Positions 9,924-45,707 of a stretch of 64,000 nt of DNA are shown here, one piece after another; position 1 is the first letter of the stretch; each line of letters opens with the position of its first letter. Made by a program: the position numbers and the translations under genes. The notes beneath the pieces are model-generated. The model saw only the letters and a program-made list of their open reading frames with translations, had not been told where the DNA came from and did not search any database. The DNA is from an uncultured virus (IMG/VR IMGVR_UViG_3300031951_000033). Lineage: Duplodnaviria > Heunggongvirae > Uroviricota > Caudoviricetes. Location: the IMG/VR virus record IMGVR_UViG_3300031951_000033; one strand, given 5' to 3'.

Positions 9924-10451
9924 TCAGACCTTTTGCTGGTACTTGGCCCTTAGATTGGCAGGCAGGGCATCGTAGTCGACTTTAGGCTGCGCGAGCGGAG
10001 ACTTAGCAGCTAGATAGTCGTTAAGACCTCTAGGCACCCTAGTCTTGGGTTTAGGGAACTTTTTGAGCGCTTCTGCACCGTCTAAGTTGAGAGACTGCTC
10101 AAGGACGCTCTGTAGTGTGCTGTCTACGTCTATAACGTGGTACTCGCCTGGAAACTTGACGTCCATGTATACCGGATACTTGCCGTCAGAGGTGAGCTCG
10201 TACGGCCAAGAATTGCCCACAGAAAGCCTGTACGGTATCTTGGTATCTTTGTATTGCCACAACAGCGTTTTGCTGATCCTTGTTCCCTTGCTTTTGGGCT
10301 TGGTTTGGCCGATCGCCACGTTGATTATCTGGACCGCAATCTCGTAGAAGTAGGAGAAAACTTCTTCGGTGGAGTCGCCGGTAGTTTCTTGAATAAGGTG
10401 GACCAACGCCGTGTGCACCATCAATCTTCTGAACTTAAAGTTTTGACTCAT
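9924..10451 (-). CDS. hypothetical early protein with C-terminal VDYDALPANLRAKY motif
   Basis: AAGGAG SD; CCGAT motif at 10476-10488. Confidence 0.7.
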   Translation of the reverse strand: MSQNFKFRRLMVHTALVHLIQETTGDSTEEVFSYFYEIAVQIINVAIGQTKPKSKGTRISKTLLWQYKDTKIPYRLSVGNSWPYELTSDGKYPVYMDVKFPGEYHVIDVDSTLQSVLEQSLNLDGAEALKKFPKPKTRVPRGLNDYLAAKSPLAQPKVDYDALPANLRAKYQQKV

Positions 10452-10572
10452 CTTGTCTCCTTTGTATATGTGAAATATACAATCGGATACAAGCACTTAT
10501 ATTCTCCTCCATGGTGACAGTAGCAACACCTCTTGCCTTTAGTCTTATGGCATCTACAGTGTTCGCAGTGGC

Positions 10573-11985
10573 TCATCTTTTCCCTCCAGAGTTTGGAACC
10601 TTTACGGTGTAGCCTAACCTTGCCAGTGGATGCTCTTCGTTACCCTCTTTACTGATAATGAACAGGCACTGCGGAAACTGTTCGCCCGGTTTCATCCATG
10701 ATTCGACCTCCACGTTTTCATAGCAACCGTCGGTCAAGAACACGGCAAGATCAGGTTTGCGCTTGTAGATGTCTTGCAGAGATTGCTTGAGATCTGTGCC
10801 ACCGTTTTGGATGTCTTCGCGCTTGATGCGTTGGCCGAGCTTGTACTCTTCTGAGTAGTAGTTCACCGTATGAAACATGTTTAGTCTGCATTTGCGCGCG
10901 CCAACCTTGAGAAACTGGTCAACAATCTCGAGAAACTCGTTGGCTTCTTCGATAGAGATAGAGCCGGATGTGTCGATGTAATTGTGCAGCTTGGGAAGCT
11001 CGCCGACCTTGGTGCCTGGTGCTTTGTAGCCGAACCGCTTGGATTTGCGTGTCCACGTGTTCTTGCGATCGTGACCGCTTGCGTGCTTCTTCATGGCGGA
11101 CAAGATTAGAGCTCGGTAGTTGAGCTCGGCTCGTCTCGCTTTGATATCGTCAAGCAATTCTTTTACGTGGCCCGGCAGATCGTCGTAGGACAGGCGCGCT
11201 TTGACCATAGCCCGCTTGACTAGATCTTCGGTGGCCTCCAGCATGTCTTTCTCTTCGGCAGAACCATCCCACAGGTGCTCGTCGAGCGTTTGAGGTAGAT
11301 CGTCTGTATCGGCGCCGCCGCCAGCGTTACCACCGGGACCCGGTTTACCGTCGTTATCCTCTGGATCTTGAAACCTGCGGATCAGCTTTTCGTAGTAGAA
11401 CTCGAACGGCTTGTTCTTTTCCCATGGCTTATTAGTCTTGGATACTGGATCAGTGTCGTAATAGTCGTTGACGTCGATGCAGCGACCAGGGCACATCTCG
11501 TTCTTGCACGGCTGTTCGGTGTGCTTTGGCGGACACTGAGGACAGCCGTTAGGCAAGCCTTTGATGAACTGGTTGATGGCCATGTCGGCCGCGATATTCA
11601 TCAGCATGCGCTTGTGCGCAGAGATCTTCATAAACGGCACACGTAGCGGATGCTTGTGAGTGATGTGACTCAGCTCGTGCATGAGTACTGCTTTGCGCTG
11701 CTCATCATCCAGCTTCTTGCAGAAGAAGTACGGATTGATGTACATGTCCCAACGCTTGGCGTCGTTGTTGAACATGATGCCGGCTGTTTGTAGAGTGTGC
11801 GCGTAGCTGATATTCAGGCACTGAAGGACGCTGCCGATGAACGGGCTGGTGCGAGTGCAAGAGTAGATCGCCGTGGCCAGACAGCGGGACTTTTCGTCCA
11901 CGCTCACAAACTCTTTGTCCATGAGATCTTTTGTAACGGTTGCTCTGATTCTTGATTTTTTCTTGTCGTTGCTGTCGTCTGACAT
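10573..11985 (-). CDS. DUF2201-type metallopeptidase-like + VWA-domain protein
   Basis: HELSH (HExxH), NIAADMAIN, MIDAS DTSGS, GGTD, LTDG. Confidence 0.85.
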   Translation of the reverse strand: MSDDSNDKKKSRIRATVTKDLMDKEFVSVDEKSRCLATAIYSCTRTSPFIGSVLQCLNISYAHTLQTAGIMFNNDAKRWDMYINPYFFCKKLDDEQRKAVLMHELSHITHKHPLRVPFMKISAHKRMLMNIAADMAINQFIKGLPNGCPQCPPKHTEQPCKNEMCPGRCIDVNDYYDTDPVSKTNKPWEKNKPFEFYYEKLIRRFQDPEDNDGKPGPGGNAGGGADTDDLPQTLDEHLWDGSAEEKDMLEATEDLVKRAMVKARLSYDDLPGHVKELLDDIKARRAELNYRALILSAMKKHASGHDRKNTWTRKSKRFGYKAPGTKVGELPKLHNYIDTSGSISIEEANEFLEIVDQFLKVGARKCRLNMFHTVNYYSEEYKLGQRIKREDIQNGGTDLKQSLQDIYKRKPDLAVFLTDGCYENVEVESWMKPGEQFPQCLFIISKEGNEEHPLARLGYTVKVPNSGGKR

Positions 11986-12028
11986 CGAATCCTCCTATGT
12001 TGATGTTGTTTTATATGATCGGTTGCGG

Positions 12029-12406
12029 TCAAAATACTTCCGCCGTGACCTTAAATAAACCGTCACCTCCAGTGTTGACGGTAGTGCAGTCTTCCGGCAT
12101 ATTATTGAGGTAGTCAGTGTCTTCGAGGAACTCGTTCCACTTCTTGATAAGATAGCAAGCATCACCGACGTAGTAGGTGCCGGCCTTAGATGCTTCGACA
12201 GTAAATGATTGGCTGTCACCGTCGATGTACGTATCTGACACCACAATAGTGATGTTTTCGTCCTTCTTAAGTCTCACCCTGAAAAACATGTGGGAGTAGT
12301 CGCGTTTTTTGCTTTTGTATCTAAGCCCATACTTTTTGATGGTGTCTGGGCCGATAATGCTTATATTTCCAGCATCTACACCTAGGGTATACTGGTAATC
12401 TTTCAT
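12029..12406 (-). CDS. hypothetical protein
   Basis: GVDAG...GDACY...TGGDG pattern seen in phage proteins. Confidence 0.6.
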   Translation of the reverse strand: MKDYQYTLGVDAGNISIIGPDTIKKYGLRYKSKKRDYSHMFFRVRLKKDENITIVVSDTYIDGDSQSFTVEASKAGTYYVGDACYLIKKWNEFLEDTDYLNNMPEDCTTVNTGGDGLFKVTAEVF

Positions 12407-12885
12407 ACATATTTCCTTTCTCCGTAGAAGGTCCAACCGGTCACAGCGATGATCTCGTTGTTGAGCACATCGATGCGACCTCTGTCGTCAGCATCCTCGC
12501 CCTGCCAGTACACAGACCCGCTGAGTGTGTAGTTCCTAGGCGCGAGAACAGAGTTGACAAGATATCTCAGCCACTCTACGTAGCGGTAGAACTTCTCGCC
12601 GCCATCCCACTGCAAACCCTTCCTGTCTGATGTCGGAGCCCATTGACACCATAGGCTTGGCTGTGTTACAGGCGGACTGTTATAAGCTATGATTGTGCTG
12701 TCATCTAGATCTTGGCCAAGAAAACCTTTGCCGTAGATGTAGAACTCGCCCTCGATGCCGTACTTCTCGTCGACCTTGCGCTTCATGCGCCTTGTTGTCG
12801 CAAGTCCGTCTAACAGCTCGTATGTCTCGTCGTCCAGCTCTCTGTCTAGATCAAAGCGGCCTTGAAAGTCAGTACTGTAACCCAT
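12403..12885 (-). CDS. conserved phage hypothetical protein
   Basis: MGYSTDF.G, QPSLWCQW, WDGGEKFY, WQGED. Confidence 0.7.
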   Translation of the reverse strand: MGYSTDFQGRFDLDRELDDETYELLDGLATTRRMKRKVDEKYGIEGEFYIYGKGFLGQDLDDSTIIAYNSPPVTQPSLWCQWAPTSDRKGLQWDGGEKFYRYVEWLRYLVNSVLAPRNYTLSGSVYWQGEDADDRGRIDVLNNEIIAVTGWTFYGERKYV

Positions 12886-13009
12886 AATGTTCCTTTGCTC
12901 CTCCAAAAAAAGTTGGGACATGCAGAGGAGGGTCCGCATGTCCCGCAAGCCGCTCAGACTACGAGATAGGGGGAAAACTCGTAGCTTGAGCGACCTGAAA
13001 GTTGGTTGA

Positions 13010-14134
13010 TTACTTCGTGGAAGTTGCCCGCGTCACCTTGATGTTGTCTTTCAACACCTTGATGAGATCTGGATGACGCTTGGTAAACTCGGCGAAGAAC
13101 GTTGTGATCTGACCTTTGGATTGCTTGTAACCGCATGCTTTGATGAGGTTGACCGCATGATCGCTAGGGATGATCTTGGCAACTTCTGCCATCGTGTCTT
13201 CGTCGATCTGATCCGGCTTGCAATCTTTCTTGAGACCGCCGTAGTTCTTCTCGATGGACTCAACTGTCGCTGCGATCATATCGCCTTGATAAGAGTTAGG
13301 ATCGCTCTGCGTGATTAGGCGGCTGATCGCTGCCTCTTTGTTCTTGACGATGTCGCTGGCAGTAACCGGTGCCGAGTCGAAGCAGAACTTGTGATACTCG
13401 TTGCCGATGTCTTTGCCGAGGATTGACTGAACAATGATGCGATGCAAGCTGCGATTGCTGCTGGCACCTGCTTTCTCAGCGGAGTTAACCTTCGACCACG
13501 TGCGGGGCGAGATATACTTGCCGCCTTTGGCGATTTCCTTCGTAGTCTTGTATACCCAGATACCTGATTTCACGAACATCTGCACGTTCTGGTGCCAGTC
13601 AGCGCGCTCGACGTAGTCCATGAACGTGATCGGGTCGTACTCGACCTCGAATTCTTCGAAACGATCTTTGAGAGCTGCATCCATCGTGTTGACGTCGTAC
13701 TCCGAAGACTCGGGATTGACGCATGCTGCGATGACCCAGCCTTTTGGCAGCTCATACTCATGAACTTTGAAGTCGGTGAGAAGCTGCATGAGGCAGTTCA
13801 TTACGCCTGTCGTACCGCGATTTGGCTCTTCGAGAAGGAGAAGACCTTCGCCTTCGGTCGGCCAGAAGCCAGGCAGACAATGGATGGTACGCCATTTGCC
13901 ACCAACCTCTAATTCCTTGGGGAACCCGATGAGATCGGGTGCTTCCATGTAAGCGATGCGAAGATCGAGAAACCCGAAGTTTGGATTTTCTTCGCGCTTG
14001 CGTTTTACCCATTGCTGAACGATCTGAGATTTACCGAGACCGGCTTCGCCCGTGAACAACGGAGTGAAGTTTTGCCCCTGTTTTCTTGCCTCAACTGCTG
14101 TGTCGAGAATTGCGCTGATGTTGCTTGGTTTCAT
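13010..14134 (-). CDS. MoxR-like AAA+ ATPase
   Basis: Walker A GEAGLGKS, Walker B LLLEE.NR, D.AL.DRF; near the VWA gene. Confidence 0.85.
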   Translation of the reverse strand: MKPSNISAILDTAVEARKQGQNFTPLFTGEAGLGKSQIVQQWVKRKREENPNFGFLDLRIAYMEAPDLIGFPKELEVGGKWRTIHCLPGFWPTEGEGLLLLEEPNRGTTGVMNCLMQLLTDFKVHEYELPKGWVIAACVNPESSEYDVNTMDAALKDRFEEFEVEYDPITFMDYVERADWHQNVQMFVKSGIWVYKTTKEIAKGGKYISPRTWSKVNSAEKAGASSNRSLHRIIVQSILGKDIGNEYHKFCFDSAPVTASDIVKNKEAAISRLITQSDPNSYQGDMIAATVESIEKNYGGLKKDCKPDQIDEDTMAEVAKIIPSDHAVNLIKACGYKQSKGQITTFFAEFTKRHPDLIKVLKDNIKVTRATSTK

Positions 14135-14191
14135 TACTTATTATCCTCCTAAGTAATTGTTTCTGGTTGATGTGAATATATAAAATCGGTA

Positions 14192-14494
14192 TCAGTGTTT
14201 GAGCCGAGAGTCTGGTTCTTCCATGATCAGGTGCGAGTTGAAGTGTCGCATGAACAGATCACATAGTTGTGCCCTAGAGGCAAGCACGCCGCTGGTCGTA
14301 GAGTCGCCTAACGCAGCAGTACGCTTTGCCATCAGTTCGTAAGCCTCAACAGATGATTCAAGTAATGTCACCAGAGCTTCCAGCTCATTTAGTCCTAGCG
14401 GAACATTGACATAACCTGGTTCTGGGGCGACAACCATCAAGCTGTTGCCCTTGCTAATCTTCTTCGTCTTCTTCGCCTTCTTTGTTTTCGCCAT
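14192..14494 (-). CDS. hypothetical protein
   Basis: AAGGAGG SD, 100 aa. Confidence 0.6.
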   Translation of the reverse strand: MAKTKKAKKTKKISKGNSLMVVAPEPGYVNVPLGLNELEALVTLLESSVEAYELMAKRTAALGDSTTSGVLASRAQLCDLFMRHFNSHLIMEEPDSRLKH

Positions 14495-14768
14495 TTACCG
14501 CCTCCTTGAGGTATTTCTCCCTGATAAAGTCAGGCAAAGCTGAAAAATCTATCTTAGATTTGCTTGCCGCTTTCTTTCTCTTGCTAGGCGATTTAGGCTC
14601 ACCGTACATTAAACTGTACTCTTCAAGCGATAAAGGCGTAGGTGCTTCGACCGGTCTGGTCGAGCGCACTACATCGCTTTTGGCCTTGGTTTCTCGCGTT
14701 TCTGCTGGACATTTGGTGATACTTCCACCCCTTGCTAAGAACTCATTGATGGTTTCTACTTTGTGCAT
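14454..14768 (-). CDS. SutA-like RNA polymerase-binding protein
   Basis: INEFLARGGSITKCP matches the SutA EEFLxRGGKV motif; C-terminal IDFSALPDFIREKY plus acidic tail. Confidence 0.55.
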   Translation of the reverse strand: MHKVETINEFLARGGSITKCPAETRETKAKSDVVRSTRPVEAPTPLSLEEYSLMYGEPKSPSKRKKAASKSKIDFSALPDFIREKYLKEAVNGENKEGEEDEED

Positions 14769-14884
14769 TGTTCTTCCTCCTGATCCTTCATGAAATCGGA
14801 TCGAGGGTAAGGTGATGATGTTGATGATCTAGCCCCATGAGATTCCATCCCGGTATCTATTATACGACAAAGTATAATCGTATT

Positions 14885-15658
14885 GTGGGGACACCGACAG
14901 AATTAACAGATATATTGTTGCACGGAATAGATCTAAAGTCTAGAAGGTTGTATTTCGGTACTCCACTAGATTTGTCAAGTGATGATGAGCAGGATTTTAG
15001 ACCCGCTACTGTAGAGTTGGCCGTACGCATACTTCATCGTTTGGCAGCAGAGGCACCTAAGAAACCCATAGAGATACACATGAGCAGTTACGGAGGCGAT
15101 CCATACGCCATGCTTCGTCTACACGACGAGATACTGAGCCTTCCTTGTCAGGTTAAGTTCTTTGGCGGTGGTCCTATCATGTCGGCGGCGACCTGGATAA
15201 TGGCGGTGTGCGACGAGCGATATCTGTACCCCAATGCCACGGTGATGATCCACGATGGCAGTTTTTCCACTGAGGGTAAACACACAGATGTTCAGATCAG
15301 TGCAGCAGAGGACAAGCGATTGCAGGATATGCTGTACGAGATATACGCCAATAACTCTAGAATGCCTAAGGCGTTCTGGCAAGAAGTCTGCCAGCGAGAT
15401 CTGTACCTCACTGCCCAAGAGGCTATTACGTTGGGGCTAGCAGACAAGATAGTGGAACCTAAAAAGCGAGGCAATCTGAGGCGCATGAGACAGAGTGCGC
15501 TGAGTAAAAAGCCGCCCGCAGGCGAGCTCAAAAAGCTGGTAAACGAGCTTTATTCTAGGATTAACAAGGTGAAGATACCCAAGATCGAGCTAAATGAGCC
15601 GATTGAAGATCCCTCTGATCCAGAGATAACTATAGATCCTGAAGTACCTCCACGCTAA
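14885..15658 (+). CDS. clpP: ClpP-like protease
   Basis: SYGGD, MSAA (Ser), MIHD (His), RDLYLTAQEA (Asp), GLADKI; GTG start 6 nt after TATAAT. Confidence 0.85.
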   Translation: MGTPTELTDILLHGIDLKSRRLYFGTPLDLSSDDEQDFRPATVELAVRILHRLAAEAPKKPIEIHMSSYGGDPYAMLRLHDEILSLPCQVKFFGGGPIMSAATWIMAVCDERYLYPNATVMIHDGSFSTEGKHTDVQISAAEDKRLQDMLYEIYANNSRMPKAFWQEVCQRDLYLTAQEAITLGLADKIVEPKKRGNLRRMRQSALSKKPPAGELKKLVNELYSRINKVKIPKIELNEPIEDPSDPEITIDPEVPPR

Positions 15659-15730
15659 CTACGATGAATCAGCGTGGAGGTATTTGCTGCAACGGGGGTA
15701 GGTGTGCATTGTCACAGCAAATGCTAAAAT

Positions 15731-15806: not shown

Positions 15807-15883
15807 ACATATTCCACTGAGCGCATATTTATGGATATCACTGGGGTGATCTCTTATTTAAATTATACTATTCGATATAAAAA

Positions 15884-20616: not shown

Positions 20617-21012
20617 TTAGAGTTTCTCTTCTACGAACTTGCGAAGATTTTCCGGCAAGATACTCTTGTTGATGCCGTTAGATTTGGCAACTTTCATTGC
20701 ACCGGTTTCTGTCTTGCTTACACGAGTTGTTGCCGGCGCATATACTTGTCCACCGTTGAGCTCTTTTGCTTTCTTGAGGTGGTTCATCACCATCGAGCGA
20801 GCATAAGCCATAACCTCGTTAGGGTTGGACTTGTCTTTGCTGTACTCTACGGTGCCGGCCAGAATAGCCTTGCCGATATTTGCCTTTATGGTTTCAAGTG
20901 CTGGCTCGGGCAAACCCGCAAGGGCATTAGTTCCGCCTTGAACGAACGGGACGCTCATCTGGCCATACATTGATACTACTTCATCGATCACTGCTTGCTT
21001 CTGCGACTTCAC
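20617..21012 (-). CDS. divergent member of the 'LRKDxRLNGG' paralog family
   Basis: KSQKQAV...AYARSMVMNHLKKAKELNGG..Y; C-terminal INKSILPENLRK. Confidence 0.7.
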   Translation of the reverse strand: MKSQKQAVIDEVVSMYGQMSVPFVQGGTNALAGLPEPALETIKANIGKAILAGTVEYSKDKSNPNEVMAYARSMVMNHLKKAKELNGGQVYAPATTRVSKTETGAMKVAKSNGINKSILPENLRKFVEEKL

Positions 21013-21026: not shown

Positions 21027-21323
21027 CTAGTGGTTGTACGCGAATTCTTTTTTAGCCGTATCTGTAACTACGGTTATCTTTATTCTTTCTACGGGCAATA
21101 TCTGCCACTCGTATTCGAGCATCTGCACCTTGTCCTTGAGCCGCAGATCCCTCAAAATGGTCGACAATGCCTTGCATAGCGCGGCATCGTTACCCTTGAC
21201 GCGCAACATCTCTTCGCGGGTCACGAGTTTCTCGAGAGACAAGAAGACGAATATCTCTTCAACTCCGCCCATGAGCTCGGCATATCGCTCAAGACACTCG
21301 ATCTCTGTCTTTAGCTTTGCCAT
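21027..21323 (-). CDS. hypothetical protein
   Basis: 98-aa ORF coupled to the exonuclease gene. Confidence 0.6.
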   Translation of the reverse strand: MAKLKTEIECLERYAELMGGVEEIFVFLSLEKLVTREEMLRVKGNDAALCKALSTILRDLRLKDKVQMLEYEWQILPVERIKITVVTDTAKKEFAYNH

Positions 21324-21895
21324 CAGTACTTTGCCGCCTCTTCAAAACCTTTAATAATATCTATCGTCATCATGACGTCGGATCGAGCATCGTGTGCTCT
21401 GGTATCAAACTGTAGGTCAAGATGCGCAGCTAGCTTCTGCAGTCCTTCGGGCGCATTAGGGTTCAACAGTCCTATGCGCTTAGCGAACATTATAATGGAT
21501 GTAAGATCGTAGAATCTGTATGAAACGAACTGGTTCCACGTATTGGAGTTTAAAAGTTGTTCGTTGATATATCCGATGTCAAAATTGACGTTTTTGCCTA
21601 GCGGGATCAGCTTGTCTTGTCCGCCACCGGAGTGCTTGTAAAGAAAGTCTCTCAGTTTTGCTCCGCCCTCCGAATATGTCATTGCCTTCTTATCATGCTC
21701 TGTCAGGTCTATGCGGTTAACTTCCATAGCTGACATTTTTGCTCGATATATTCCATCGTTGGGCTTAAGAAGCAAATTGAGCTCGTCTAGCATAAAGTAT
21801 TTGTCGTCTAAAACCATGAATGATGCTGTAAGAAGTGACGTTGTCTTGGGGTCTGTGCCGCCCGACTCTACGTCTAAAGCAATAAACTTTGCCAT
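21323..21895 (-). CDS. DEDDh 3'-5' exonuclease (DnaQ-like)
   Basis: IALDVESGG, N..FD, HDARSD. Confidence 0.85.
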   Translation of the reverse strand: MAKFIALDVESGGTDPKTTSLLTASFMVLDDKYFMLDELNLLLKPNDGIYRAKMSAMEVNRIDLTEHDKKAMTYSEGGAKLRDFLYKHSGGGQDKLIPLGKNVNFDIGYINEQLLNSNTWNQFVSYRFYDLTSIIMFAKRIGLLNPNAPEGLQKLAAHLDLQFDTRAHDARSDVMMTIDIIKGFEEAAKY

Positions 21896-22839: not shown

Positions 22840-23646
22840 CTAGTAGTAGCGAAGAAATCTAGTGAGGTCCTTGTTGCTGATCACGCAGCCCCAGTGAGTT
22901 CTGTCGTCAGAAGCGAACAGCACACCCACAACGTTGCCGTACCAGTCAACAGCAGGGCTTCCGCTATTGCCGGGGTAAACTACTGCGTTAGTGATGTATA
23001 CGTCGGATATGACGGTGGTGCAGAGTCTTGCTTTTACCTTTCCGAAAGGAGTGGCAAGCATTATCTTCTGTATGCGGTTTTTGGGCTTGTCGCACTTCTC
23101 GTTCCTGGTGTTGAACATGGCGTCCAGCAGGTGGTCGTTTAGCGACATCACGTACTCGGTAAACTGTACTTCTCTTTCGCCCATAACGTCTCCGCGTGAC
23201 ACTGCTAGAGGCATAAGAAGCGGGTGGCCAACGATCGCGATCTCGTCTCCTATGTCTGGAGCTGACGTTACTTTAAGTCCGGTGACACCTGGAAGACCTT
23301 CTATGAGGCAAAGATCCGACTCGTCGGATATATCTATTACCGAGCGTTTGATCAGTGATCCCTTGTCGTCTCTGATCAGAACCTTGTTGTTAGCTGTCTC
23401 TTTTAGTACAGCTTCGCACACGTGCGCGTTGCTAACTATGTAGCTGATACCTGATGGAGCCGTGACAGCAAAGCCGGTACCGCCTCCGCTGTTAGGTGAG
23501 GACTGTATCTTGTATACCTTAGCTTGAACCTTTTTTCTGACATAGTCGCTGTGTACAACTGGCGCCTTCATGGCGAGATACACTAAACATGGGATCAGGA
23601 GCATCGACAGTATTGGTTTAGGGTCAATTTTAGGTACTTTTTTCAT
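22840..23646 (-). CDS. membrane-anchored trypsin-like serine protease
   Basis: N-terminal TM; GTGF, NAHVC, DLCLI, PGNSGSP triad motifs. Confidence 0.85.
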   Translation of the reverse strand: MKKVPKIDPKPILSMLLIPCLVYLAMKAPVVHSDYVRKKVQAKVYKIQSSPNSGGGTGFAVTAPSGISYIVSNAHVCEAVLKETANNKVLIRDDKGSLIKRSVIDISDESDLCLIEGLPGVTGLKVTSAPDIGDEIAIVGHPLLMPLAVSRGDVMGEREVQFTEYVMSLNDHLLDAMFNTRNEKCDKPKNRIQKIMLATPFGKVKARLCTTVISDVYITNAVVYPGNSGSPAVDWYGNVVGVLFASDDRTHWGCVISNKDLTRFLRYY

Positions 23647-29343: not shown

Positions 29344-29538
29344 TTACCTGTTATTCCACTTTACGTTTTTTATGAGTTCCCTTATGTTTTTGGGCAACTT
29401 GCTGATCTGCTCGGGCTTTAGGGCCACCTGTTTAAAGGATCTGTTTACCGTATGGCCTACCTTCTTAACTTTTCCGCCATTATTGACGAACTCCATTGTC
29501 TGGAACGCTATCAACTGTCTTGTTTGTGTTTTTGTCAT
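29344..29538 (-). CDS. second SutA-like small protein
   Basis: MEFVNNGGKVKKV; C-terminal ISKLPKNIRE; AGGAGG SD; motif variant at 29557-29569. Confidence 0.5.
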   Translation of the reverse strand: MTKTQTRQLIAFQTMEFVNNGGKVKKVGHTVNRSFKQVALKPEQISKLPKNIRELIKNVKWNNR

Positions 29539-29816: not shown

Positions 29817-30134
29817 ATGTTAAAAAATGATCTTCCAGAGTTTAACTTTAAAGCTCAACCCCATGAGATGCTGGGGATAGACAAGACCGCTGATCATCGC
29901 ACCATAATGAACGCCTACTGGTCTAAGATGAGCATGTACGACCCGAATTTACATGCAGATAAGCCTAAAGAGCATGTAGATCACTGTAAAAAGATATCGA
30001 CCTATATAAACGGCGCAAAGAACAGCATGCTTAGAAACTTAAGAAAAAGCGATGGCGATGCAAGCGACTCTCTTGTCGAGGTTCTGGCTTGGGCAACCGA
30101 TGAGCTTTATAAACTAAAAAACTATAAGAAATAA
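29817..30134 (+). CDS. degenerate J-domain protein
   Basis: PHEMLGI...AY...YDPN (HPD altered)...INGAK; paralog of the next gene's C-terminus. Confidence 0.65.
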   Translation: MLKNDLPEFNFKAQPHEMLGIDKTADHRTIMNAYWSKMSMYDPNLHADKPKEHVDHCKKISTYINGAKNSMLRNLRKSDGDASDSLVEVLAWATDELYKLKNYKK

Positions 30135-30147
30135 GTGCGAGCAGATT

Positions 30148-31092
30148 ATGGCTAATGTTTACAACACTAACTGGGTAAGACAAGACGAAGAGCTCAAAAA
30201 GAGCTACGAAGACTCCATTAACATTCATCAGCAAACACATGCCGAAATCAAGAACAACGAGAACGCTAGAATTAAAGAGCACGCCGAAGCCTTAAAAGAT
30301 GCTAGTAAGCGCATGGCAGAAAGAATATCTGAGGCGCACCGTTGGCACGCCAAAACTCACGCGGATATAGATCGGCAGCACGCTAACAGCAAAAGAGAGT
30401 TCGAAGAAGGCATGAAGCGTTCGACCAACGACCATCAGAGACGATACCATCAAGATAGATACAATATGTTCCAAGATGCCTTCGCTGAAAGGCGCAAGGA
30501 AGCAGACGGTAACCTCAAGTCAGCAAAAGAGCTTCATGCAGAAGACTTCGGCAGAATAAAGGCTCATCATGACGAAAAGTTGAAAATGTTCGGAGATTAT
30601 TACAAAAACAAGCGCGCGGAGGCAGATGAGCGCCTTAAGTGGGCGAAAGGCTATTACGGCGATAAAAGCAGCTCTTCGCAGCAGAAGCAACAACAGCAGC
30701 AGCAGAGATCTTATCAAGATACCGGCAACAGGCAACAATACCAATCTCAGCAGCAAACTCCTCCGCCAAGACAGCAACCGGTTAAACCTAAAGAAAACAT
30801 GCCAGAGGGTTTTAACTTTAATTTTAACGCAGCTCCACACGAGATGCTGGGGATTAAACCAGGCGCTACAAGATCAGAAGTGATGTCTGGTTACAAGAAT
30901 GCCATGAGGCGCTATCACCCAGACGTTAATCCTGCAGAGCACAGCGCTCTATATACTAGAGCGGCGCAAGCTATCAACGGAGCAAAAGATCGAGCTTTGA
31001 GAGGATTAGCGAAAGCACTTATAGATGCTTTAGTAGAAGCGCTCAACAAGTCTAGAGCAAAGAAAACCAATAACGATCAGTGGTCTATATAA
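30148..31092 (+). CDS. coiled-coil protein with C-terminal J domain
   Basis: PHEMLGI.PGAT..EV...YK..MRRYHPDVN...INGAK; Q-rich linker; LKKS/LAKA/LNKS; ends NNDQWSI. Confidence 0.85.
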   Translation: MANVYNTNWVRQDEELKKSYEDSINIHQQTHAEIKNNENARIKEHAEALKDASKRMAERISEAHRWHAKTHADIDRQHANSKREFEEGMKRSTNDHQRRYHQDRYNMFQDAFAERRKEADGNLKSAKELHAEDFGRIKAHHDEKLKMFGDYYKNKRAEADERLKWAKGYYGDKSSSSQQKQQQQQQRSYQDTGNRQQYQSQQQTPPPRQQPVKPKENMPEGFNFNFNAAPHEMLGIKPGATRSEVMSGYKNAMRRYHPDVNPAEHSALYTRAAQAINGAKDRALRGLAKALIDALVEALNKSRAKKTNNDQWSI

Positions 31093-31150: not shown

Positions 31151-31648
31151 TTATGCGTTAGCGTATTTGTGACGCAGACTCTCTGGAAGAGCGTTGAAAT
31201 CCACTTGAGGTTTCTTTTCAGGAGCAATTTCTGCCATCCTGGTGTTGATAGCTTTTTGTACCTCTTCGATATCTTCGGCAGAAGTTAGAGCGCCAGACGC
31301 CATGAGCTGTCGCAACGCCTTGATCTGAGGATCGGTAGATCCACGGCGACTACCGTTGCTCTGGGCGGGTGTATATTTAACACCACCGTTGAGGCGAGTG
31401 TCTTTGCGCAACCAGTTAGAGATCAAACCGGATACGTAAGTGCGGAGCTTAGAGTCATCGCCGAACTTGGTATTGAGCTCGATCGAACCAGAATTGAAAC
31501 CTTCAACAAGGATGTTTGCCACTTGTTGACGAGCATTTGAGCTCAAGCTCTCTGCTACGGGGGAGTTATCGCTGATCGACTGACCAGACTCGGTTAACAC
31601 GGACTGAATGGCGCTATAAACCGCCTCTTTTTGCTTTTGCTTACTCAT
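31151..31648 (-). CDS. 'LRKDxRLNGG' paralog family protein
   Basis: YVSGLISNWLRKDTRLNGGVKY, DPQIKALRQL, VDFNALPESLRHKY. Confidence 0.85.
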   Translation of the reverse strand: MSKQKQKEAVYSAIQSVLTESGQSISDNSPVAESLSSNARQQVANILVEGFNSGSIELNTKFGDDSKLRTYVSGLISNWLRKDTRLNGGVKYTPAQSNGSRRGSTDPQIKALRQLMASGALTSAEDIEEVQKAINTRMAEIAPEKKPQVDFNALPESLRHKYANA

Positions 31649-33865: not shown

Positions 33866-34378
33866 TCACTGCGCACTCACTGCGACCTGCGCTGCAAATT
33901 TTTCGCGCAGAGACTCTGGGAGTGCATCGAAGTTAACGGAGATGCTGGGGCGCTTCGCCTTGACGATCTCTGCTTGACGATTGGCAATGAAGGTATTGAT
34001 CTCTTCGATACCGGCAGGATCTGTGACCTGGCCAGATGCGAGAAGCGCTTTCATCGCCTTGATCTGTGGATCAGTAGAGCGGGTAGAACCGGTCTTGCTT
34101 GGGGTGTATGCTGCGCCGCCGTTAAGACGCTTGTCTTTACGGAGCCAGTTGGACACAAGACCGCTTGCGTAAGCGGAAATCTTGCTGTCGTCGAATATCT
34201 TGTTGAGCTCGATGGTGCCAGCCTTGAAGCCGTCAACAAGAGTCTTAACAACTGCTTCGCGTTGGGTTTTAGTGATCATCTCTGCTGCGTTAGAGCCTTC
34301 TGTGAAGGTTCCACCGTTTGTTTCGATGACTGTCTTTACGGCATTGAATACCGCTTCTTTTTGGTTTTGTTTAGACAT
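33866..34378 (-). CDS. 'LRKDxRLNGG' paralog family protein
   Basis: YASGLVSNWLRKDKRLNGG, DPQIKAMKAL, VNFDALPESLREKF. Confidence 0.85.
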   Translation of the reverse strand: MSKQNQKEAVFNAVKTVIETNGGTFTEGSNAAEMITKTQREAVVKTLVDGFKAGTIELNKIFDDSKISAYASGLVSNWLRKDKRLNGGAAYTPSKTGSTRSTDPQIKAMKALLASGQVTDPAGIEEINTFIANRQAEIVKAKRPSISVNFDALPESLREKFAAQVAVSAQ

Positions 34379-39443: not shown

Positions 39444-39461
39444 TGTTTCTAGGATTGATTC

Positions 39462-39821: not shown

Positions 39822-39824
39822 TTA

Positions 39825-40277
39825 TTAGCCTTGCTTCTTTCTGTAGAGGTTCACTCCGTAGAACACACCGTCATGGCTGTGGTCGTTGTGGTTGATCTTC
39901 TCGTAACCCTTTCCGGCCATGTGCTCGTCCATGAGATCTTGGTGCAACTTCATGTACTTACCGAACTCCTGCGGGTTTTTCTTGAAAGCGTGGTCGGGGT
40001 GGTAGGAGTCGCCGTGATCCCAGTAGATGGCGAGATCGTTAGGCTGGGCATGAGCGCCCGCACTCTTAGGGTCGTCCATCAGGAAGTGGCTAGAGTGTCT
40101 AGGCCCATACTTCGCGTTGGTGAACTCGTTTAGCGCATCCAGGTGGTTCATCGTGTCCTGGTGAGGGTGTTCGGCGAGTTCTCGCCCCATTTTCACCTTG
40201 TCACTCTTGCTGAGCGATTCCATCTCTGCTGCCTTGTTCTTCTCTAAAATCCACTGGTCCCAGTTGTTCTCTGCCAT
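39825..40277 (-). CDS. His-rich putative internal head protein
   Basis: TGGTAAAAT promoter, SD; NNWDQWILEKN and LSKS motifs. Confidence 0.6.
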   Translation of the reverse strand: MAENNWDQWILEKNKAAEMESLSKSDKVKMGRELAEHPHQDTMNHLDALNEFTNAKYGPRHSSHFLMDDPKSAGAHAQPNDLAIYWDHGDSYHPDHAFKKNPQEFGKYMKLHQDLMDEHMAGKGYEKINHNDHSHDGVFYGVNLYRKKQG

Positions 40278-40294
40278 ATTGCTTTCTCCTCTTG

Positions 40295-40504
40295 TTACTC
40301 TTGTGATTTTACCATCTCTGTGTGCTTGCAATAGCCTCTGCAGATGCCAGAGGGACATGTGCACTTCATCTTACCCCGCTTGTCTTTCTCCACCTTGTAA
40401 ACCTCCCTAGGAACAAGCGCATCTTCCTTCCACTTGCTCACCGTCCACGCTTGCCCTATGTCTTGCCTGACCATATAGGTATACAACTCGTCTCCTCGCC
40501 TCAC
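40295..40504 (-). CDS. SWIM zinc-finger protein
   Basis: CTCP......CKH. Confidence 0.7.
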   Translation of the reverse strand: MRRGDELYTYMVRQDIGQAWTVSKWKEDALVPREVYKVEKDKRGKMKCTCPSGICRGYCKHTEMVKSQE

Positions 40505-40926
40505 TCGTAGTCCTCCTTACTAGGAACACTCAGGACAACCACATCCACGTCACCGTTCTTCCACGCTTCCTTGTAGGCTTCTGCAACCGCTTTACCTAAA
40601 GCGTCATCCTCGCTCTCTGCCGTAACATCTATGTCCCACACTTCCGCGTAGTCGCTTCCCGCATCAAAGCCTCTATGTCCCCAGAACTCGTAAGCTCCGA
40701 TGCCGTCGTTACCGACCCGCCAATCCTTGACCTTTACGGTCAACTCTACTTCTCTCCCACACCCAAGGACCTCGACATAGCCCTCGTCCCACACGCTCTC
40801 CAGCTCCAACTCATTTCTGAATACGGGTCCACCTTCCACAAACACGTACTTCTTTTTCTCAATCTCAAAACCGTCCACTACAATCATCTTTTCACTCTCA
40901 ACATTACTAACATCACTACTACTCAT
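40501..40926 (-). CDS. acidic hypothetical protein
   Basis: GIGAYEFWG motif; AGGAG SD. Confidence 0.6.
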   Translation of the reverse strand: MSSSDVSNVESEKMIVVDGFEIEKKKYVFVEGGPVFRNELELESVWDEGYVEVLGCGREVELTVKVKDWRVGNDGIGAYEFWGHRGFDAGSDYAEVWDIDVTAESEDDALGKAVAEAYKEAWKNGDVDVVVLSVPSKEDYE

Positions 40927-41624
40927 AGGACTAGTTCTCCTCTCTAACATATATAAAAGGCCCTACTTTAACATCTAACACCTATACTTACCTAGACCTA
41001 GAGAAGATACTAGATACCCTAGGAGAAGATGTACTGCTAGAGCTTGATATACTCACCCTCAAACCCTCTATAAAGGGTCTAAAAGAGAGTCTAGCAAGCC
41101 CTAGAATCACACCCAGACATATAATATCGGATACAGGGCAGCGAGTGTAAGTGCTTGATATTGCAGGGACAAGTAGAGCAAAACCCAGAGGGTGGCCACG
41201 CACACTAACCTGACTAAGTCGGCTATTCCGCTTATTCCCGCTCAAAATCGGCTAAGCTCACTTAACATTTAAGCGGCGCCCAGAGTCGGTTCCTTTCCCT
41301 TCCCCTAGGGGGAAATCGGGTGTGTCTCTTCCCCTAGGGAGCTTGGAGATAGTCTGTTGCCCTAGGGCCTTACTGCAAATGAAAGATGGGGGATATCGGA
41401 GGGATTCGCTGCAGGTTTTCCCCTAGGGGACAGCAGGATGTCGGTATGCTGGATCTCTCCCGGCGTAGCGGTGTCGGAAGACGCGCAGGAGTCGGTAACG
41501 CTCTAGGGATGTCGAAATGCCGGTGTTGTTTTTGTCGGACGATGTCGTCGATAATGTCGGATGCGCTGGCGGTCGGGCGTAGCAGTGTCGGCAGGCAGCG
41601 CCTACCGACAGGCCTTGAGGGAAA

Positions 41625-41870
41625 TCAGTACTCGGCCACGTTGTCGTAGTCCTCGTAGTCAGGCTCGGGATAGTCTTCCTCGTACTCCTCGCCGTAGTCG
41701 TCCTCCTGCTCCTGGTGCCAAGCGTCCTCTGCCTGGCAGCGGTAGCAGTACATGCCGGTCTGGGGATCCGGGTGATACTCTTTGCCGCACTGCTGGCACT
41801 CAACAGTGGTATTGAAGTCGATGCAGCCTTCGGGGCCGCAGCCGCAGCATGGGTAGTCTTCGTGTCTCAT
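41625..41870 (-). CDS. Cys-rich acidic early protein
   Basis: EDYPCCGCG, CQQC, CYRC; AAGGAG SD. Confidence 0.7.
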   Translation of the reverse strand: MRHEDYPCCGCGPEGCIDFNTTVECQQCGKEYHPDPQTGMYCYRCQAEDAWHQEQEDDYGEEYEEDYPEPDYEDYDNVAEY

Positions 41871-41955
41871 AGGCTATTGTCTCCTTGTTGGGGTTGTACG
41901 GAAGCGGGTTTTAAGGCTGGCCAGGCGAGCAGTACCCGCCTGGCCGAGACGCTTG

Positions 41956-42423
41956 TCAGTGATTGAAGAACTTGGAGCGCAGAGCTTCGGGCAGCGCGCT
42001 CACATCGATGGCGGGCTTTTCTACCGGCTTGAGCTCGGCTTGGCGCCTGTCGATGGCGGACTGCACCTCAGCGATGTCCTCGGGGCTAGTCAGCATGCCT
42101 GAGGCCATGAGCTGGCGGAGCGCCTTGATGGTGGGGTCGCCGCTGCCGGCTCTGCTGCCTGGGTTCTTGGGCTCGTACTTGACGCCGCCGTTGAGGCGGG
42201 TGTCTTTGCGGAGCCAGTTGTTGAGGAGGCCGGAGCAGTAGTTGCGCAGCTCCTTGTCGGCCGGGATCGCTCCGTCGTAGCTGATCTTGCCGGCCTTGAA
42301 ACCCTCGGTGAGGATCTCGATGACCTCGTGCTTCTGGCCGCGATCGAGCTCGACCGCTCCTTCGCCCGAGAGCTCGAAAATGTTGGTGATTGCTTGGTAT
42401 ACGGCCTCTTTTTGCTTCATCAT
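41956..42423 (-). CDS. 'LRKDxRLNGG' paralog family protein
   Basis: YCSGLLNNWLRKDTRLNGGVKY; IDVSALPEALRSKF. Confidence 0.85.
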   Translation of the reverse strand: MMKQKEAVYQAITNIFELSGEGAVELDRGQKHEVIEILTEGFKAGKISYDGAIPADKELRNYCSGLLNNWLRKDTRLNGGVKYEPKNPGSRAGSGDPTIKALRQLMASGMLTSPEDIAEVQSAIDRRQAELKPVEKPAIDVSALPEALRSKFFNH

Positions 42424-42655
42424 AGTGTTTGCTTTCTAGCCAAGTTGTTAGAGCAGGCTCTATTGCTTGCTTGGTTGCTTGGCTTTTGTTATATAAACAC
42501 ATAATGTCGGTTTGAGTCGCTGCCGAAAGGCAAACCAGAGTAGTAAAGTCGGTGGAGCCCGCAGCGGGTGCAGTCGGCTGGGCGTAGCAGTGTCGGTAGC
42601 ACCCGACCAAAGGCGACCCAGGACCGAAGTCCCGGATCGCCCACCCGAGGAGAAC

Positions 42656-42892
42656 TCAGAACAGAGATCGGATCTTGTTGTAGGCGCGCTTGAACGCGTT
42701 CTTGATCATTACCTCGAGCCAGCCGTCTTTCTGCGGGCCGTAGCTGCGTTCGCTGTACGCTATCATCATGGCGTCGCGCCACATCTGGTCCTTGTGTAGC
42801 CGATCACCGATAGCCTTCGCGTGGATGTCGGCTTTGATACGCTCGGCGTACTGGTCTACCGGCGTGTAGTAGTCGTAATCGTCGTGTCTCAC
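42656..42892 (-). CDS. hypothetical early protein
   Basis: AAGGAG SD; MRHDDY start resembles 41625..41870. Confidence 0.6.
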   Translation of the reverse strand: MRHDDYDYYTPVDQYAERIKADIHAKAIGDRLHKDQMWRDAMMIAYSERSYGPQKDGWLEVMIKNAFKRAYNKIRSLF

Positions 42893-42923
42893 GTGCTTCT
42901 CCTTTGTCTATATTATACGGATC

Positions 42924-43082
42924 TCATTTCAGCTGCTGGCGAACACCGTCGTCTACCAGCTTGTACCAGCTGTTGTAGAAGTCCCGCTCGTGGTCGAGCA
43001 GTTCCAGGTCCAGGATGGACTCGATGTAGGTGAGCAGCTTGTCTACTTGTTCTTCGGTCATGGTGATGCTGAATGTTGTCAT
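42924..43082 (-). CDS. 52-aa acidic protein (paralog A), absent from the ORF track
   Basis: AAAGGAG SD; MTTFSITMTEEQVDKLLTYIES...QQLK*. Confidence 0.75.
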   Translation of the reverse strand: MTTFSITMTEEQVDKLLTYIESILDLELLDHERDFYNSWYKLVDDGVRQQLK

Positions 43083-43133
43083 GGTTGTTCTCCTTTGGTT
43101 TGGTTATAGCGCCGACTGCTTCCTCTGCGCAGT

Positions 43134-43295
43134 CTATTGCTTCATTTGCTGGTGAATCTGATTGCTAAGCTCGTCGTACAGCTCTTGATAAAATCCCTGC
43201 TCTTCGGGTGTGTCGCAAAGCTCTATCATCGACTCGACGTGAGTGAAGATCTTGTCTATCTGATCTGCGGTCATGGTGATGCTGAATGTCGTCAT
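43134..43295 (-). CDS. 53-aa acidic protein (paralog B), absent from the ORF track
   Basis: AAAGGAG SD; MTTFSITMTADQIDKIFTHVES...QQMKQ*. Confidence 0.75.
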   Translation of the reverse strand: MTTFSITMTADQIDKIFTHVESMIELCDTPEEQGFYQELYDELSNQIHQQMKQ

Positions 43296-43719
43296 CGTTT
43301 TCTCCTTTGTTGAGTTTATGTGTTGTCGGTTGTGGCTGGCCGCAGAGATAGCATCCCCGCGGCCAGCATGAAAGTTAGTTCCAGAGTCGAGACTTTAAAT
43401 TCCATGAATCGGCGACAAGCAAGGAGCTAAGGTCGTCCTCGCGGTCTAACTTGAGCAACAGCTCACTGAGCTCGATATCGAGCTCTTTATAGCCTTCTAG
43501 CTTCGGGTTGTTGTAGAACTCCAAACGCTGGTCTTCCAGCATCTCAAAGAGGTCTTTCATGCGTTCTCCTGTTGGTTGGCGTTCAGCTGTGTGTTAGATC
43601 ACAGCTGTATGATTAAAAATATTAAGATAACTTAACTTTTCAATCATATTATCAAATAATGTCGGTTGCAGTCGCTAGGCGTAGCAGTGTCAGCCGACTT
43701 GCGCCAGCTGACACTCGGT

Positions 43720-43980
43720 CTAATTGGCCAGCTTGGCCTTAGCGCCAAACAGCTCGTTCAGCTTGTCGACCAGCGGCTGCTCTGCTTCCATGAACAGGTA
43801 GTCGTAGTCGTCGGTGCTGAAGAACATGCGGTAGCATGGCTCTTCGAACTGTCCGTGGCAGAGCTCGAAGATGACTCCGTCGAAGTTTTTGCAGTTGTGT
43901 GGCTCCAACAGCTCGCTGTGCATCAGGATCTGCATGGCGGGCTCAGTGACTTGGTCTCTACGTGGTATCAGTGTTGTCAT
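43720..43980 (-). CDS. hypothetical early protein
   Basis: AAAAGGAG SD. Confidence 0.65.
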   Translation of the reverse strand: MTTLIPRRDQVTEPAMQILMHSELLEPHNCKNFDGVIFELCHGQFEEPCYRMFFSTDDYDYLFMEAEQPLVDKLNELFGAKAKLAN

Positions 43981-44427
43981 GGTTTCTCCTTTTTCTCGAC
44001 CTGCTCAGGAGACAACCAGAGATACGGTGGTCTCTACGCCGTATTCAGCAAGGAACTCGCTGAGCAGATTGTTCTGAACTGTCGGGTCGTTTATAGCGGA
44101 ATAGATGTGGTTGTATATCACTGAGCCAGCCACGGTGCTGATCAGTCTGTGCGCTAGTTGGTCAGGGGTTTGTCCAGTAATGTCCATCAGGATCTCTAAG
44201 TTATCCATTGCTTCTCCTCGTTGGTAAATCATTGTTGCAAGTTGCGGGGTTATGAAAGTTGCCCGCCGCAGTCTTGCAAAACCGCAGCGGGCGAACCACC
44301 AACAACGTTGACCACCTAACAACATGGTCAACGACCAACAACTTGTTGACAATCACGTCGTGATCATCATGTTGTTTGATCGAATCGGATTTGGCCGGAG
44401 CACCGAAGTGCCCCGGCCACACCGCTG

Positions 44428-44889
44428 TTAGCGGCTGTACTTGGCGCGCAGCGCTTCAGGCAGAGCGCTGTAGTCAACCGTTACCTGAGGCTTGAGCTCA
44501 TCTTGCCGCTTGGAGATGGCCGCTTCGATCTCGGCGATGTCCTCGGGGCTGGTCACTGCGCCAGAGGCGAGGAGCGATCTCAGCGCCTTGAGCTGGGCAT
44601 CACCTGCACCCTGGCGAGAGCCAGGATTCTTGGCGATGTACTCAGTGCCGCCGTTGAGGCGCTTGTCCTTGCGGACGTGGTTGTTCACCAGTCCGGGGAC
44701 ATACTTGCGGAGCCACTCGGGGTTGCGCTTGTTCTCGTCAGAGAGCTGGATGTTCCCGCTCATGAAACCCTCGGTGAGGATTGCCATGATCTCGTTGAGG
44801 TGGGGCTTCACCTCGCTCCAGTCATAGGACTCTTGTTGACCCATTACGGTTGTTACTGCGGCCACTACTGCATCACTTTGCTTCATCAT
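44428..44889 (-). CDS. 'LRKDxRLNGG' paralog family protein
   Basis: YVPGLVNNHVRKDKRLNGG; VDYSALPEALRAKY. Confidence 0.85.
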   Translation of the reverse strand: MMKQSDAVVAAVTTVMGQQESYDWSEVKPHLNEIMAILTEGFMSGNIQLSDENKRNPEWLRKYVPGLVNNHVRKDKRLNGGTEYIAKNPGSRQGAGDAQLKALRSLLASGAVTSPEDIAEIEAAISKRQDELKPQVTVDYSALPEALRAKYSR

Positions 44890-45245
44890 AACTACTCCTT
44901 TGTAGTTGGTTTGTTCATGACTACACATGTAGTCGGTCTAACGATCAAAAAATTAAAGTTATTTAACTTTTTAATCATGTTGTTAGATAAAGTCGGTTCT
45001 AGCCGACCGGGCGTAGCAGTGTCAGGCAGCTGATGCCACCTGACAAGTAATGCTATCTTATGCTGCTGAGCATCACCACTATCTGGGTGAAGACGTAAGC
45101 CGCGCCGCAGACGATGATCAAGCAGTAGCCGTAGTAGATGTTCGTAGTCATTGTGTTTCTCCTTGTTGTTGTACTGCGTTGTAATACAATGTGTTGCCGG
45201 ATGAAGCGGCCGGAGCACAGCGTACCCCGGCCGACACCGCTACAG

Positions 45246-45707
45246 TTACTTGCCGAACTTAGCTCTCAGTGCCGCTGGCAGAGAGTCGTAGTCGACCTCG
45301 ACCTTGGGCTGCAGCTCAGCTTGGCGCTGAGCGATCGCAGCCTCGACCTCGGCGAGGTCGCTAGGCGAGGTGACCGCACCGCTCGCGATCAGAGCTCGCA
45401 GAGCCTTGAGCTGCGCATCGCCTGCTCCTTGGCGAGAGCCAGGATTCTTGGCGACATACTCGGTGCCACCGTTCAGCCGCTTGTCCTTTCGGACATGGTT
45501 GTTAATCAGACCTGGAACGTAGGACTTGATGTACTCTGGATTCCGCTTGCTCTCGTCGGAGAGTTGGACTTCTCCAGAGAGGAATCCTTCGGTCACTACC
45601 GCGATGATCTCGGAGAGGTGGGGTTTCACCTCGCTCCAGGCATAAGACTCACGGTTTCCCATCACTGCGGTTACTGCGGCTACAACACAATCAGACTGCT
45701 TCATCAT
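45246..45707 (-). CDS. 'LRKDxRLNGG' paralog family protein
   Basis: YVPGLINNHVRKDKRLNGG; VDYDSLPAALRAKF; close duplicate of 44428..44889. Confidence 0.85.
   Translation of the reverse strand: MMKQSDCVVAAVTAVMGNRESYAWSEVKPHLSEIIAVVTEGFLSGEVQLSDESKRNPEYIKSYVPGLINNHVRKDKRLNGGTEYVAKNPGSRQGAGDAQLKALRALIASGAVTSPSDLAEVEAAIAQRQAELQPKVEVDYDSLPAALRAKFGK

Follow-up and report, generated by a model that had tools for sequence, protein, structure and literature searches.

The 64,000-nucleotide (64-kb) stretch of IMG/VR record IMGVR_UViG_3300031951_000033 analysed here (the window) is part of a large uncultured myophage, and several of its minus-strand genes encode proteins that end in one and the same short peptide, hydrophobic-(D/N)-x-x-x-L-P-x-x-L-x-x-(K/L)-(Y/F/V), which we call the LP tail. 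The sharing of this C-terminal peptide is genuine, and the peptide is under selection and portable: it is carried by a family of paralogs (A1), by a family of small proteins (S, with the classes S1 and S2) bearing a second motif that resembles the RNA polymerase (RNAP) binding core of Pseudomonas aeruginosa SutA, and by a lineage-specific protein of 175 amino acids (aa), named 9924 after its position as the other genes are. Its identification as a portable docking motif is well supported. As a tentative reading, the LP tail may tag A1, S and 9924 for one common receptor, most likely located on or with the host RNAP.

The preliminary description of the window had named nine open reading frames (ORFs) with this peptide, all of which were recovered on the minus strand with the coordinates of Table 1. 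The strict form of the pattern, [VIL][DNS]xx[AS]LPxx[LI]RxK, matches seven times in the six-frame translation, each time within a minus-strand ORF and 3-19 residues before the stop. These seven matches in 103 predicted proteins (17,720 aa) stand against none in each of 1000 within-protein shuffles, and a looser pattern matches nine times in the same proteins against a shuffle mean of 0.28 (maximum 3). Eight of the nine looser matches end 6-22 residues before the C-terminus; the ninth, 49 aa from the end of a 605-aa structural protein (60522-62339), is probably due to chance. The C-terminal enrichment over shuffled controls that the preliminary description had called for was thus found with both patterns.

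A motif hidden Markov model (HMM) built from the tails of 106 A1 homologs and applied to the window and three related loci set 15 matches of at least 7.3 bits apart from noise of at most 4.5 bits. Of the nine copies originally counted, the seven strict ones stand, the copy in the 20617 protein is weaker (7.3 bits), and that in the 29344 protein is not above noise. The bodies of the three carrier families indeed cannot be aligned to each other, as had been proposed; because six of the carriers are paralogs, however, the window holds about three independent occurrences of the tail and not nine. Throughout the A1 family the tail reads (I/V)-(D/N)-x-x-x-L-P-x-x-L-x-x-(K/L)-(F/Y/V), with L and P near-invariant. 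Family-wide, neither the Arg nor the Lys of 'LRxK' is conserved, the Arg position being occupied by A in 32, R in 30, Q in 27 and K in 13 of the 106 tails.

That the tail moves independently of its scaffold is apparent from profile and DNA comparisons alike. When whole profiles of the small proteins and the A1 paralog family were compared with hhalign, 17 tail residues alone aligned (83%), and tail-only profiles of S2 and A1 aligned over 16 columns with 96.1% (E 3.5e-9). DNA identity amounts to 44-74% inside the motif and to 16-47% in the flanks for all carrier pairs but the closest paralogs, 44428 and 45246, which share 69% upstream; carriers from different families (9924 or 14454 compared with an A1 paralog, and 9924 compared with 14454) are 20-47% identical in the 45 nt on either side. 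As the flanks are at background identity, the motif is maintained by selection rather than by recent exchange, and a spread of the tail by recent recombination was rejected on the same evidence. The earlier proposal of a portable linear motif therefore holds for three scaffolds with non-alignable bodies. Short, conserved, set in a disordered context on unrelated scaffolds and conserved position by position above its flanks, the tail displays the generic properties of short linear motifs.

Related sequences give the same picture. In 41 sequences covering 726 kb, some of them overlapping and counted without removal of duplicates, the tail is present on 67 of 81 A1 ORFs, and the 11 non-A1 matches of at least 7 bits consist of seven belonging to small S proteins, 9924 and 14454, together with four low-scoring frames. 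The complete relative G001 (176,504 bp with terminal repeats, 240 predicted proteins) contains exactly three tail matches of at least 10 bits, namely one A1 member, S1 and S2. The modules recombine naturally, as A1 without tail, the A1 hairpin alone, and the SutA-like motif joined either to the hairpin or to the tail are all found (Table 1).

Table 1. Coordinates of the tail-bearing genes, their motifs and further features; positions refer to the window unless a related genome or contig is named.
Feature	Position	Strand	Details
A1 paralog, 165 aa	31151..31648	-	LP tail VDFNALPESLRHKY at 31166-31204 (strict)
A1 paralog, 170 aa	33866..34378	-	LP tail VNFDALPESLREKF at 33899-33937 (strict)
A1 paralog, 155 aa	41956..42423	-	LP tail IDVSALPEALRSKF at 41971-42009 (strict)
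A1 paralog	44428..44889	-	LP tail VDYSALPEALRAKY at 44440-44478 (strict); ORF extends to 44928, likely start MMKQSD at 44889
A1 paralog	45246..45707	-	LP tail VDYDSLPAALRAKF at 45258-45296 (strict); ORF extends to 45779, likely start MMKQSD at 45707
Diverged A1 member, 131 aa, without M2 hairpin	20617..21012	-	Weaker tail INKSILPENLRKF, ~20635-20673
Lineage-specific 9924 protein, 175 aa, start MSQNFKF	9924..10451	-	LP tail VDYDALPANLRAKY at 9942-9980 (strict), tail HMM 17.1 bits; ORF extends to 10496
S1 protein, 104 aa	14454..14768	-	SutA-RBD-like motif INEFLARGGSITKCP, ~14706-14750
LP tail of 14454 (strict)	14514-14552	-	IDFSALPDFIREKY
Acidic C-terminal tail of 14454	~14457-14495	-	
Small protein, 72 aa	29344..29562	-	SutA-like/PFL_1563-like motif MEFVNNGGKVKKV
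Marginal LP-like element of 29344	29380-29397	-	ISKLPKNIRE; below noise with the tail HMM, aligns only at the invariant L-P
A1 without tail	G001 111087-111506		
Hairpin alone	L002 14580-14786		
SutA-like motif with hairpin	L036 14397-14633		
SutA-like motif with tail			S1, S2
SutA-like motif in other phage contigs	L077, L083, L085, L086, L079 and others; P0265		
S1 neighbourhood	10573-15658; G001 137929-142730		
Proteostasis genes	7894-8268, 14837-15658, 22840-23646, 29817-31092; G001 L053:1362-3089		
CCGAYNNTATA sites	3798, 6233, 6780, 10476 (10476..10486), 12012, 14179, 22819, 31757, 34420, 35144, 36050, 41120, 48155	-	

Besides its six paralogs in the window, the A1 family comprises 591 unnamed metagenomic homologs at E <= 0.01, all of them from phage-like contigs. 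A strongly conserved core, YxSGLxSNWLRKDxRLNGGxKYxAKNPGSRxG, is followed by a helical hairpin, a variable linker and the tail. Among the matches listed, 106 of 120 A1 homologs contain [LIV]PxxL within their last 22 residues, and the other 14 divide into 12 members with an LSAEQIxLLxxAGLxx tail, one truncated sequence and one with LSPEL. This alternative ending, LSAEQIxLLxxAGLxx(hydrophobic), which occurs in P0011, P0015, P0026 and others, in G001 at 99030-99530 and in L039, may be a second docking motif. The diverged 20617 protein belongs to the family by its A1 HMM score (E 8e-29) and is the ortholog of G001 124691-125062.

An AlphaFold2 model of the 31151 protein, based on a 50-sequence alignment, consists of six helices with a predicted local distance difference test score (pLDDT) of 90.5 and a predicted template modelling score (pTM) of 0.62; its tail forms a helix (residues 156-162) in a block of pLDDT 89. 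Foldseek found no match to this fold in the PDB at E <= 0.001, the best hits of a VIA wide search (Z ~5) were winged-helix-like domains over residues 1-91 and lie within the chance range stated for the tool, BFVD returned only a member of the family itself, and the ESM Atlas yielded phage-only hypothetical clusters. The RLNGG segment of the core was considered as a SutA-like element and rejected (hhalign 0.6%).

With a profile of 15 small proteins, 301 S clusters (50% identity) were retrieved at E <= 0.001 among 1.84 billion representatives. Leaving aside the window's own proteins, 145 of 149 listed relatives are at most 200 aa long, and 139 of these 145 carry both motifs, defined as an N-terminal FLxxGGx(I/V), with a median start at residue 12 in the listed relatives, and, downstream of it, a [LIVM]Pxx[LIVM] with 0-50 residues left before the C-terminus. 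Class S1, to which the 14454 protein belongs, comprises proteins of ~100-120 aa in which a conserved LSLEEADLFYGE stretch is combined with the LP tail and an acidic end; class S2 proteins are ~62-70 aa long and terminate in LPxALKIKYGI(K/R). The model of a 69-aa S2 protein (25 sequences) reached a pTM of 0.28 and contains two short helices, one per motif, and no strands, with pLDDT values of 80-88 for the motif blocks and ~80 for the tail. Judged by this model, S2 appears to be disordered and to carry two linear motifs, and the notion that SutA-like motif and LP tail fold into one mini-domain is not supported by it. In all five genomes compared, S1 is encoded in the order DUF2201/VWA-metallopeptidase, MoxR-like ATPase, S1, with a ClpP-like gene divergent from S1.

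The link to transcription comes from the N-terminal motif of the S proteins. According to PMC9300723, SutA binds the beta protrusion via residues 57-90, with L67, M71, F74, L75, G78, G79, V81 and I84 at the interface. The last six of these positions, F74-I84, are kept in the phage motif T-E-T/S-V-A-E-F-L/M-A-R-G-G-x-I-x-K-V, whose matching form is F-(L/M)-x-x-G-G-x-(I/V)-x-x-V and in which the N-terminal half of the SutA helix is absent. The preliminary assignment of EFLxRGGKV as the RNAP-binding motif of SutA agrees with this paper and with an hhalign comparison to bacterial SutA sequences (30 loci fetched, 27 aligned), which gave 95.8% for S2 and 94.8% for all small proteins over 23 columns. 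The S proteins seem to resemble SutA (PF20661, NF041490) in the helix-GG-strand core, seen as AMEEFLSRGGKVQEI in PDB 7f0r_G, and going by the description of SutA in 10.1101/423384, both it and S1 are small, largely disordered proteins with an acidic tail. They differ in that the similarity spans only ~23 columns and scores 16-25 bits against a cut-off of 29.3 (PF20661) and 16 against 145 (NF041490), in the missing half of the long N-terminal helix, and in the position of the acidic tail, which is C-terminal in S1 but N-terminal in SutA; the SutA C-tail ADPPKKPxSxYGSRPI, present in the 27 bacterial sequences, is replaced by the LP tail.

Pfam SutA-RBD ORFs, one to three per genome, were found in five of five related phage genomes, the best at 25.4 bits against 29.3, and the same search matched 7 of 14 control bacterial genomes at E <= 1, none above the cut-off. 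For the 29344 protein the SutA-RBD match has an E-value of 0.0013 and that to NF058628, the PFL_1563 family, one of 2.9e-4. Seven of 15 small proteins match NF058628 at positions ~5-37 of 51, which is its FLxxGGxI region, though every match stays below the 60-bit cut-off, and the function of that family is unknown. The SutA-like motif, (K)ETVEEFLARGGxIKK, is itself portable: it heads small proteins with unrelated basic tails as well as HNH-endonuclease fusions of 191-224 aa, is found C-terminally in L086, and occurs twice within a 764-aa protein.

The third scaffold, the 9924 protein, has a body unrelated to those of the other carriers and matches the A1 family HMM through its tail alone (E 0.22). 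Only three close homologs were found, and the tail is present in all three. Searches of Pfam, PHROG, IMG/VR and the ESM Atlas gave no match for this protein, and no counterpart was found at the syntenic position in G001; in the window its gene is inserted directly after the DUF2201 gene.

Taken together, these features can be arranged into a tentative scheme. The LP tail would comprise an extended stretch followed by a Pro-capped amphipathic helix and would tag different modules for one receptor in a clade of large myophages with a DnaE-type polymerase. An A1 carrier would bring along its helical N-domain, the conserved WLRKDxRLNGG segment and the helical hairpin, an S carrier a mostly unstructured chain with the N-terminal SutA-type RNAP-binding core FLARGGxIxKV, to which S1 adds its acidic tail. 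The receptor would reside on, or be assembled with, the host RNAP; this location is proposed because the most frequent partner motif of the tail is SutA-like. The lack of RNAP subunit families among the 147 G001 proteins scanned would be in keeping with it. S proteins might thereby hold RNAP at two points, or bridge RNAP to the receptor, and an A1 paralog or the 9924 protein would take the same site instead, only one of them at a time.

A role in RNAP takeover, as put forward in the preliminary description, is plausible. A more detailed version, which we regard as improbable as it stands, is a two-motif plug in which the SutA-like anchor sits on the beta protrusion and the LP tail occupies a second site with interchangeable modules. 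The six A1 paralogs, whose N-domain is weakly winged-helix-like (Z ~5), would serve as exchangeable subunits for specificity or appropriation and guide RNAP to CCGAT-N2-TATA promoters, in a clade for which the Pfam searches indicate no RNAP of its own. If true, it would be a takeover of host RNAP unrelated to that by T4 AsiA/MotA.

Several results weigh against an RNAP-borne receptor. The SutA-like motif of the S family is the sole link to RNAP, and an indirect one; it is solely the presence of this anchor in one carrier family that makes RNAP the leading candidate. Two of the three scaffolds offer no such link themselves: 9924 lacks a SutA-like motif, and the body of A1 bears no resemblance to SutA (hhalign 0.6%). 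SutA-RBD matches all seven small proteins searched, but at 16-18.5 bits against the cut-off of 29.3, full-length SutA (NF041490) reaches at best 16 bits (E 0.017) where 145 are demanded, and the word FLARGG also occurs by chance in unrelated PDB chains. An equivalence of the LP tail with the SutA C-tail was rejected, as hhalign gave 0.8% for S2 and 0.1% for A1 with KYGxR alone aligned. Among the genomes sampled, the tail is moreover found only in the clade that has A1, a restriction that fits a phage-encoded receptor equally well as a host one, and the pLDDT of 89 for the A1 tail could reflect packing in cis in the model.

A phage-encoded receptor, which is rather unlikely in absolute terms, is nearly as likely as RNAP. 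It could be the A1 body, for instance its hairpin, or a protein of the clade core, a possible example being the pair encoded beside S1, MoxR-like ATPase and DUF2201/VWA-peptidase. In the former case tails would dock in trans, so that A1 molecules would form head-to-tail chains into which the S proteins and 9924 plug. Forms that would be receptor only (tail-less A1, hairpin alone, SutA-like motif with hairpin) and ligand only (S1 and S2, with tail and without hairpin) do exist, although the six A1 paralogs of the window all keep their tails and no free receptor form is encoded there. The high confidence of the A1 tail would agree with such docking; high local pLDDT is unspecific, however, and no proof of docking in cis, as the free S2 tail also reaches ~80 in its model. 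Each of the four genomes with a completeness of at least 90% (G001, G002, G004, G013) encodes both tail-bearing S proteins and A1, A1 is present in none of three complete genomes whose SutA-motif protein has no tail, and the gene order S1, ATPase, DUF2201 is kept in five of five genomes. This co-occurrence is a clade effect, G012, the one large complete genome without A1, sharing only 19 of the 240 G001 proteins, and therefore cannot separate a phage-encoded from a host receptor; for the receptor itself, a phylogenetic-profile search was uninformative since the difference set of G001 and G012 is the whole clade core.

Docking of the tail on another host hub, the beta sliding clamp in the first place and the partners of FtsZ in the second, seems to us unlikely. 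T4 provides the precedent for the clamp, as its gp43, gp33 and gp55 are unrelated proteins with short C-terminal clamp-binding tails, and gp33 couples RNAP to DNA-loaded clamps, as S proteins would do in this case. The likeness lies in a single C-terminal peptide by which unrelated phage proteins, among them a small acidic one that binds RNAP, are or, with the LP tail, would be addressed to one hub; the peptide sequence is different, however, a clamp gene was not detected in the clade, and no replication protein of G001 or the window has an LP tail. In six-frame searches the clamp N-domain (DNA_pol3_beta) was found in none of five related genomes, and because the clade encodes its own DnaE-type Pol III alpha and a DnaQ-like exonuclease, it may depend on, and probably borrows, the host clamp. 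The clamp-binding pentapeptide has the consensus QL[SD]LF, which the first five tail positions, (D/N)-hydrophobic-(S/A/N/D)-x-L, recall loosely. The hallmark Gln is nevertheless absent, its position (-4) being D in 83 and N in 23 of the 106 tails, and position 4 is occupied by A in 58, D in 16, V in 14 and S in 12, so that the tail does not qualify as a beta-clamp motif. For FtsZ, the resemblance was noted by eye: PMC4117426 gives the conserved hub-binding C-terminal tail of E. coli FtsZ as DYLDIPAFLRKQAD, which shares D-aromatic-x-x-hydrophobic-P-x-x-L-R-basic with the LP tail in the same register. The F377 position is, however, E, S or A in the LP tail, the Arg is not conserved across the family, and at profile level mimicry of the FtsZ tail was rejected, since none of 29 gammaproteobacterial FtsZ tails reached 7 bits and all scored at most 0 with the LP HMM.

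Least probable, in our judgement, is that the tail does not dock at all and is instead a structural cap folding back on its own protein, or a basic amphipathic helix for binding to membranes or nucleic acids. The confident A1 model tail, the alternation of basic and hydrophobic residues in the S2 end LKIKYGI(K/R) and the R or K residues of many tails would suit this explanation. Yet the tail is also attached to proteins without a fold to cap (S2, pTM 0.28) and naturally missing from some A1 members, the invariant L-P together with the conserved (I/V)-(D/N) argues for specific recognition, and conservation of the basic residues does not extend to the family at large.

The preliminary description had also likened ALPxxxR to the start of sigma region 4.1. 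Region 4 of extracytoplasmic function (ECF) sigma factors begins with LPxxxR, and the LP tail shares the L-P, an R four residues later and a hydrophobic or aromatic residue at +7. The Arg, however, is present in only 30 of 106 tails, and a single helix is no sigma domain 4; no Pfam Sigma70_r4 match was obtained for any of the nine proteins at E <= 0.1. A degenerate LPxALKIKYG pattern matched three loci in bacterial genomes, all of them chance frames, and thus gave no clue to the host.

The LP motif, both carrier families and the phage version of the SutA RNAP-binding core appear undescribed in the literature searched: queries on SutA with bacteriophage, on PFL_1563 and on short linear motifs in phage early proteins returned nothing relevant, and a 2026 SutA preprint does not mention phage. 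Shared docking peptides as such are a known principle, exemplified by the clamp-binding tails of T4. As a 15-residue peptide with an invariant L-P, the tail offers an easy handle for pull-down, and since A1 and S are both large families found in uncultured large phages, knowing the receptor would in one step give hundreds of 'hypothetical' phage genes a function and could reveal a new way of taking over host transcription.

With regard to the CCGAY motif, which had been reported, as such or as a variant, upstream of eight of the nine genes, we find an exact CCGAY within 150 nt upstream of seven. The extended form CCGAYNNTATA has 13 matches in the window, all on the minus strand, where 0.59 are expected, and these lie 8-120 nt upstream of many unrelated genes. 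A looser CCGAYNNNAT likewise occurs 30 times in minus sense versus five times in plus sense, mostly in intergenic regions and again in front of many unrelated genes. CCGAY is hence a general promoter-like element of the phage and does not single out the tail-bearing genes. The CCGAT element directly adjoins a -10-like TATA(A/T)T, which suggests a phage-specific promoter class.

The genomic surroundings are those of a large phage without a close relative in INPHARED. Positions 1-48150 of the window form a minus-strand block of nucleotide-metabolism, repair, ligase, exonuclease, chaperone-like and many small unknown genes, followed from 48196 on by a plus-strand structural block that includes the tail sheath. 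Related IMG/VR contigs of 85-177 kb have 91-164 of the 240 G001 proteins in common with G001, and the window matches 44 of them. G001 encodes a DnaE-type Pol III alpha, a DnaB-like helicase, primase, RecA and GroEL. Pfam searches covering 147 of its 150 proteins of at least 110 aa (the other three being two A1 genes and S1) detected no RNAP subunit families. In a six-frame search of the five related genomes a Sigma70_r2 match was obtained in one, at G004:C1:149177-149287 (29.1 bits) within a 652-aa open frame.

The DnaE Pol III alpha (1191 aa, G001 L052:12250-15825) is of the bacterial type, and the DnaQ-like exonuclease is encoded separately at 21323-21895 of the window. The window furthermore contains a set of proteostasis genes for Hsp20, a ClpP-like protease, a trypsin-like protease and two J-domain proteins (Table 1), and G001 additionally encodes GroEL, peptide deformylase, PTH2, an RF-1 domain protein and RtcB. 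A 507-aa protein encoded where the structural block begins (49140-50663) combines a NUDIX domain with a weak TelA-like region and is kept in G001.

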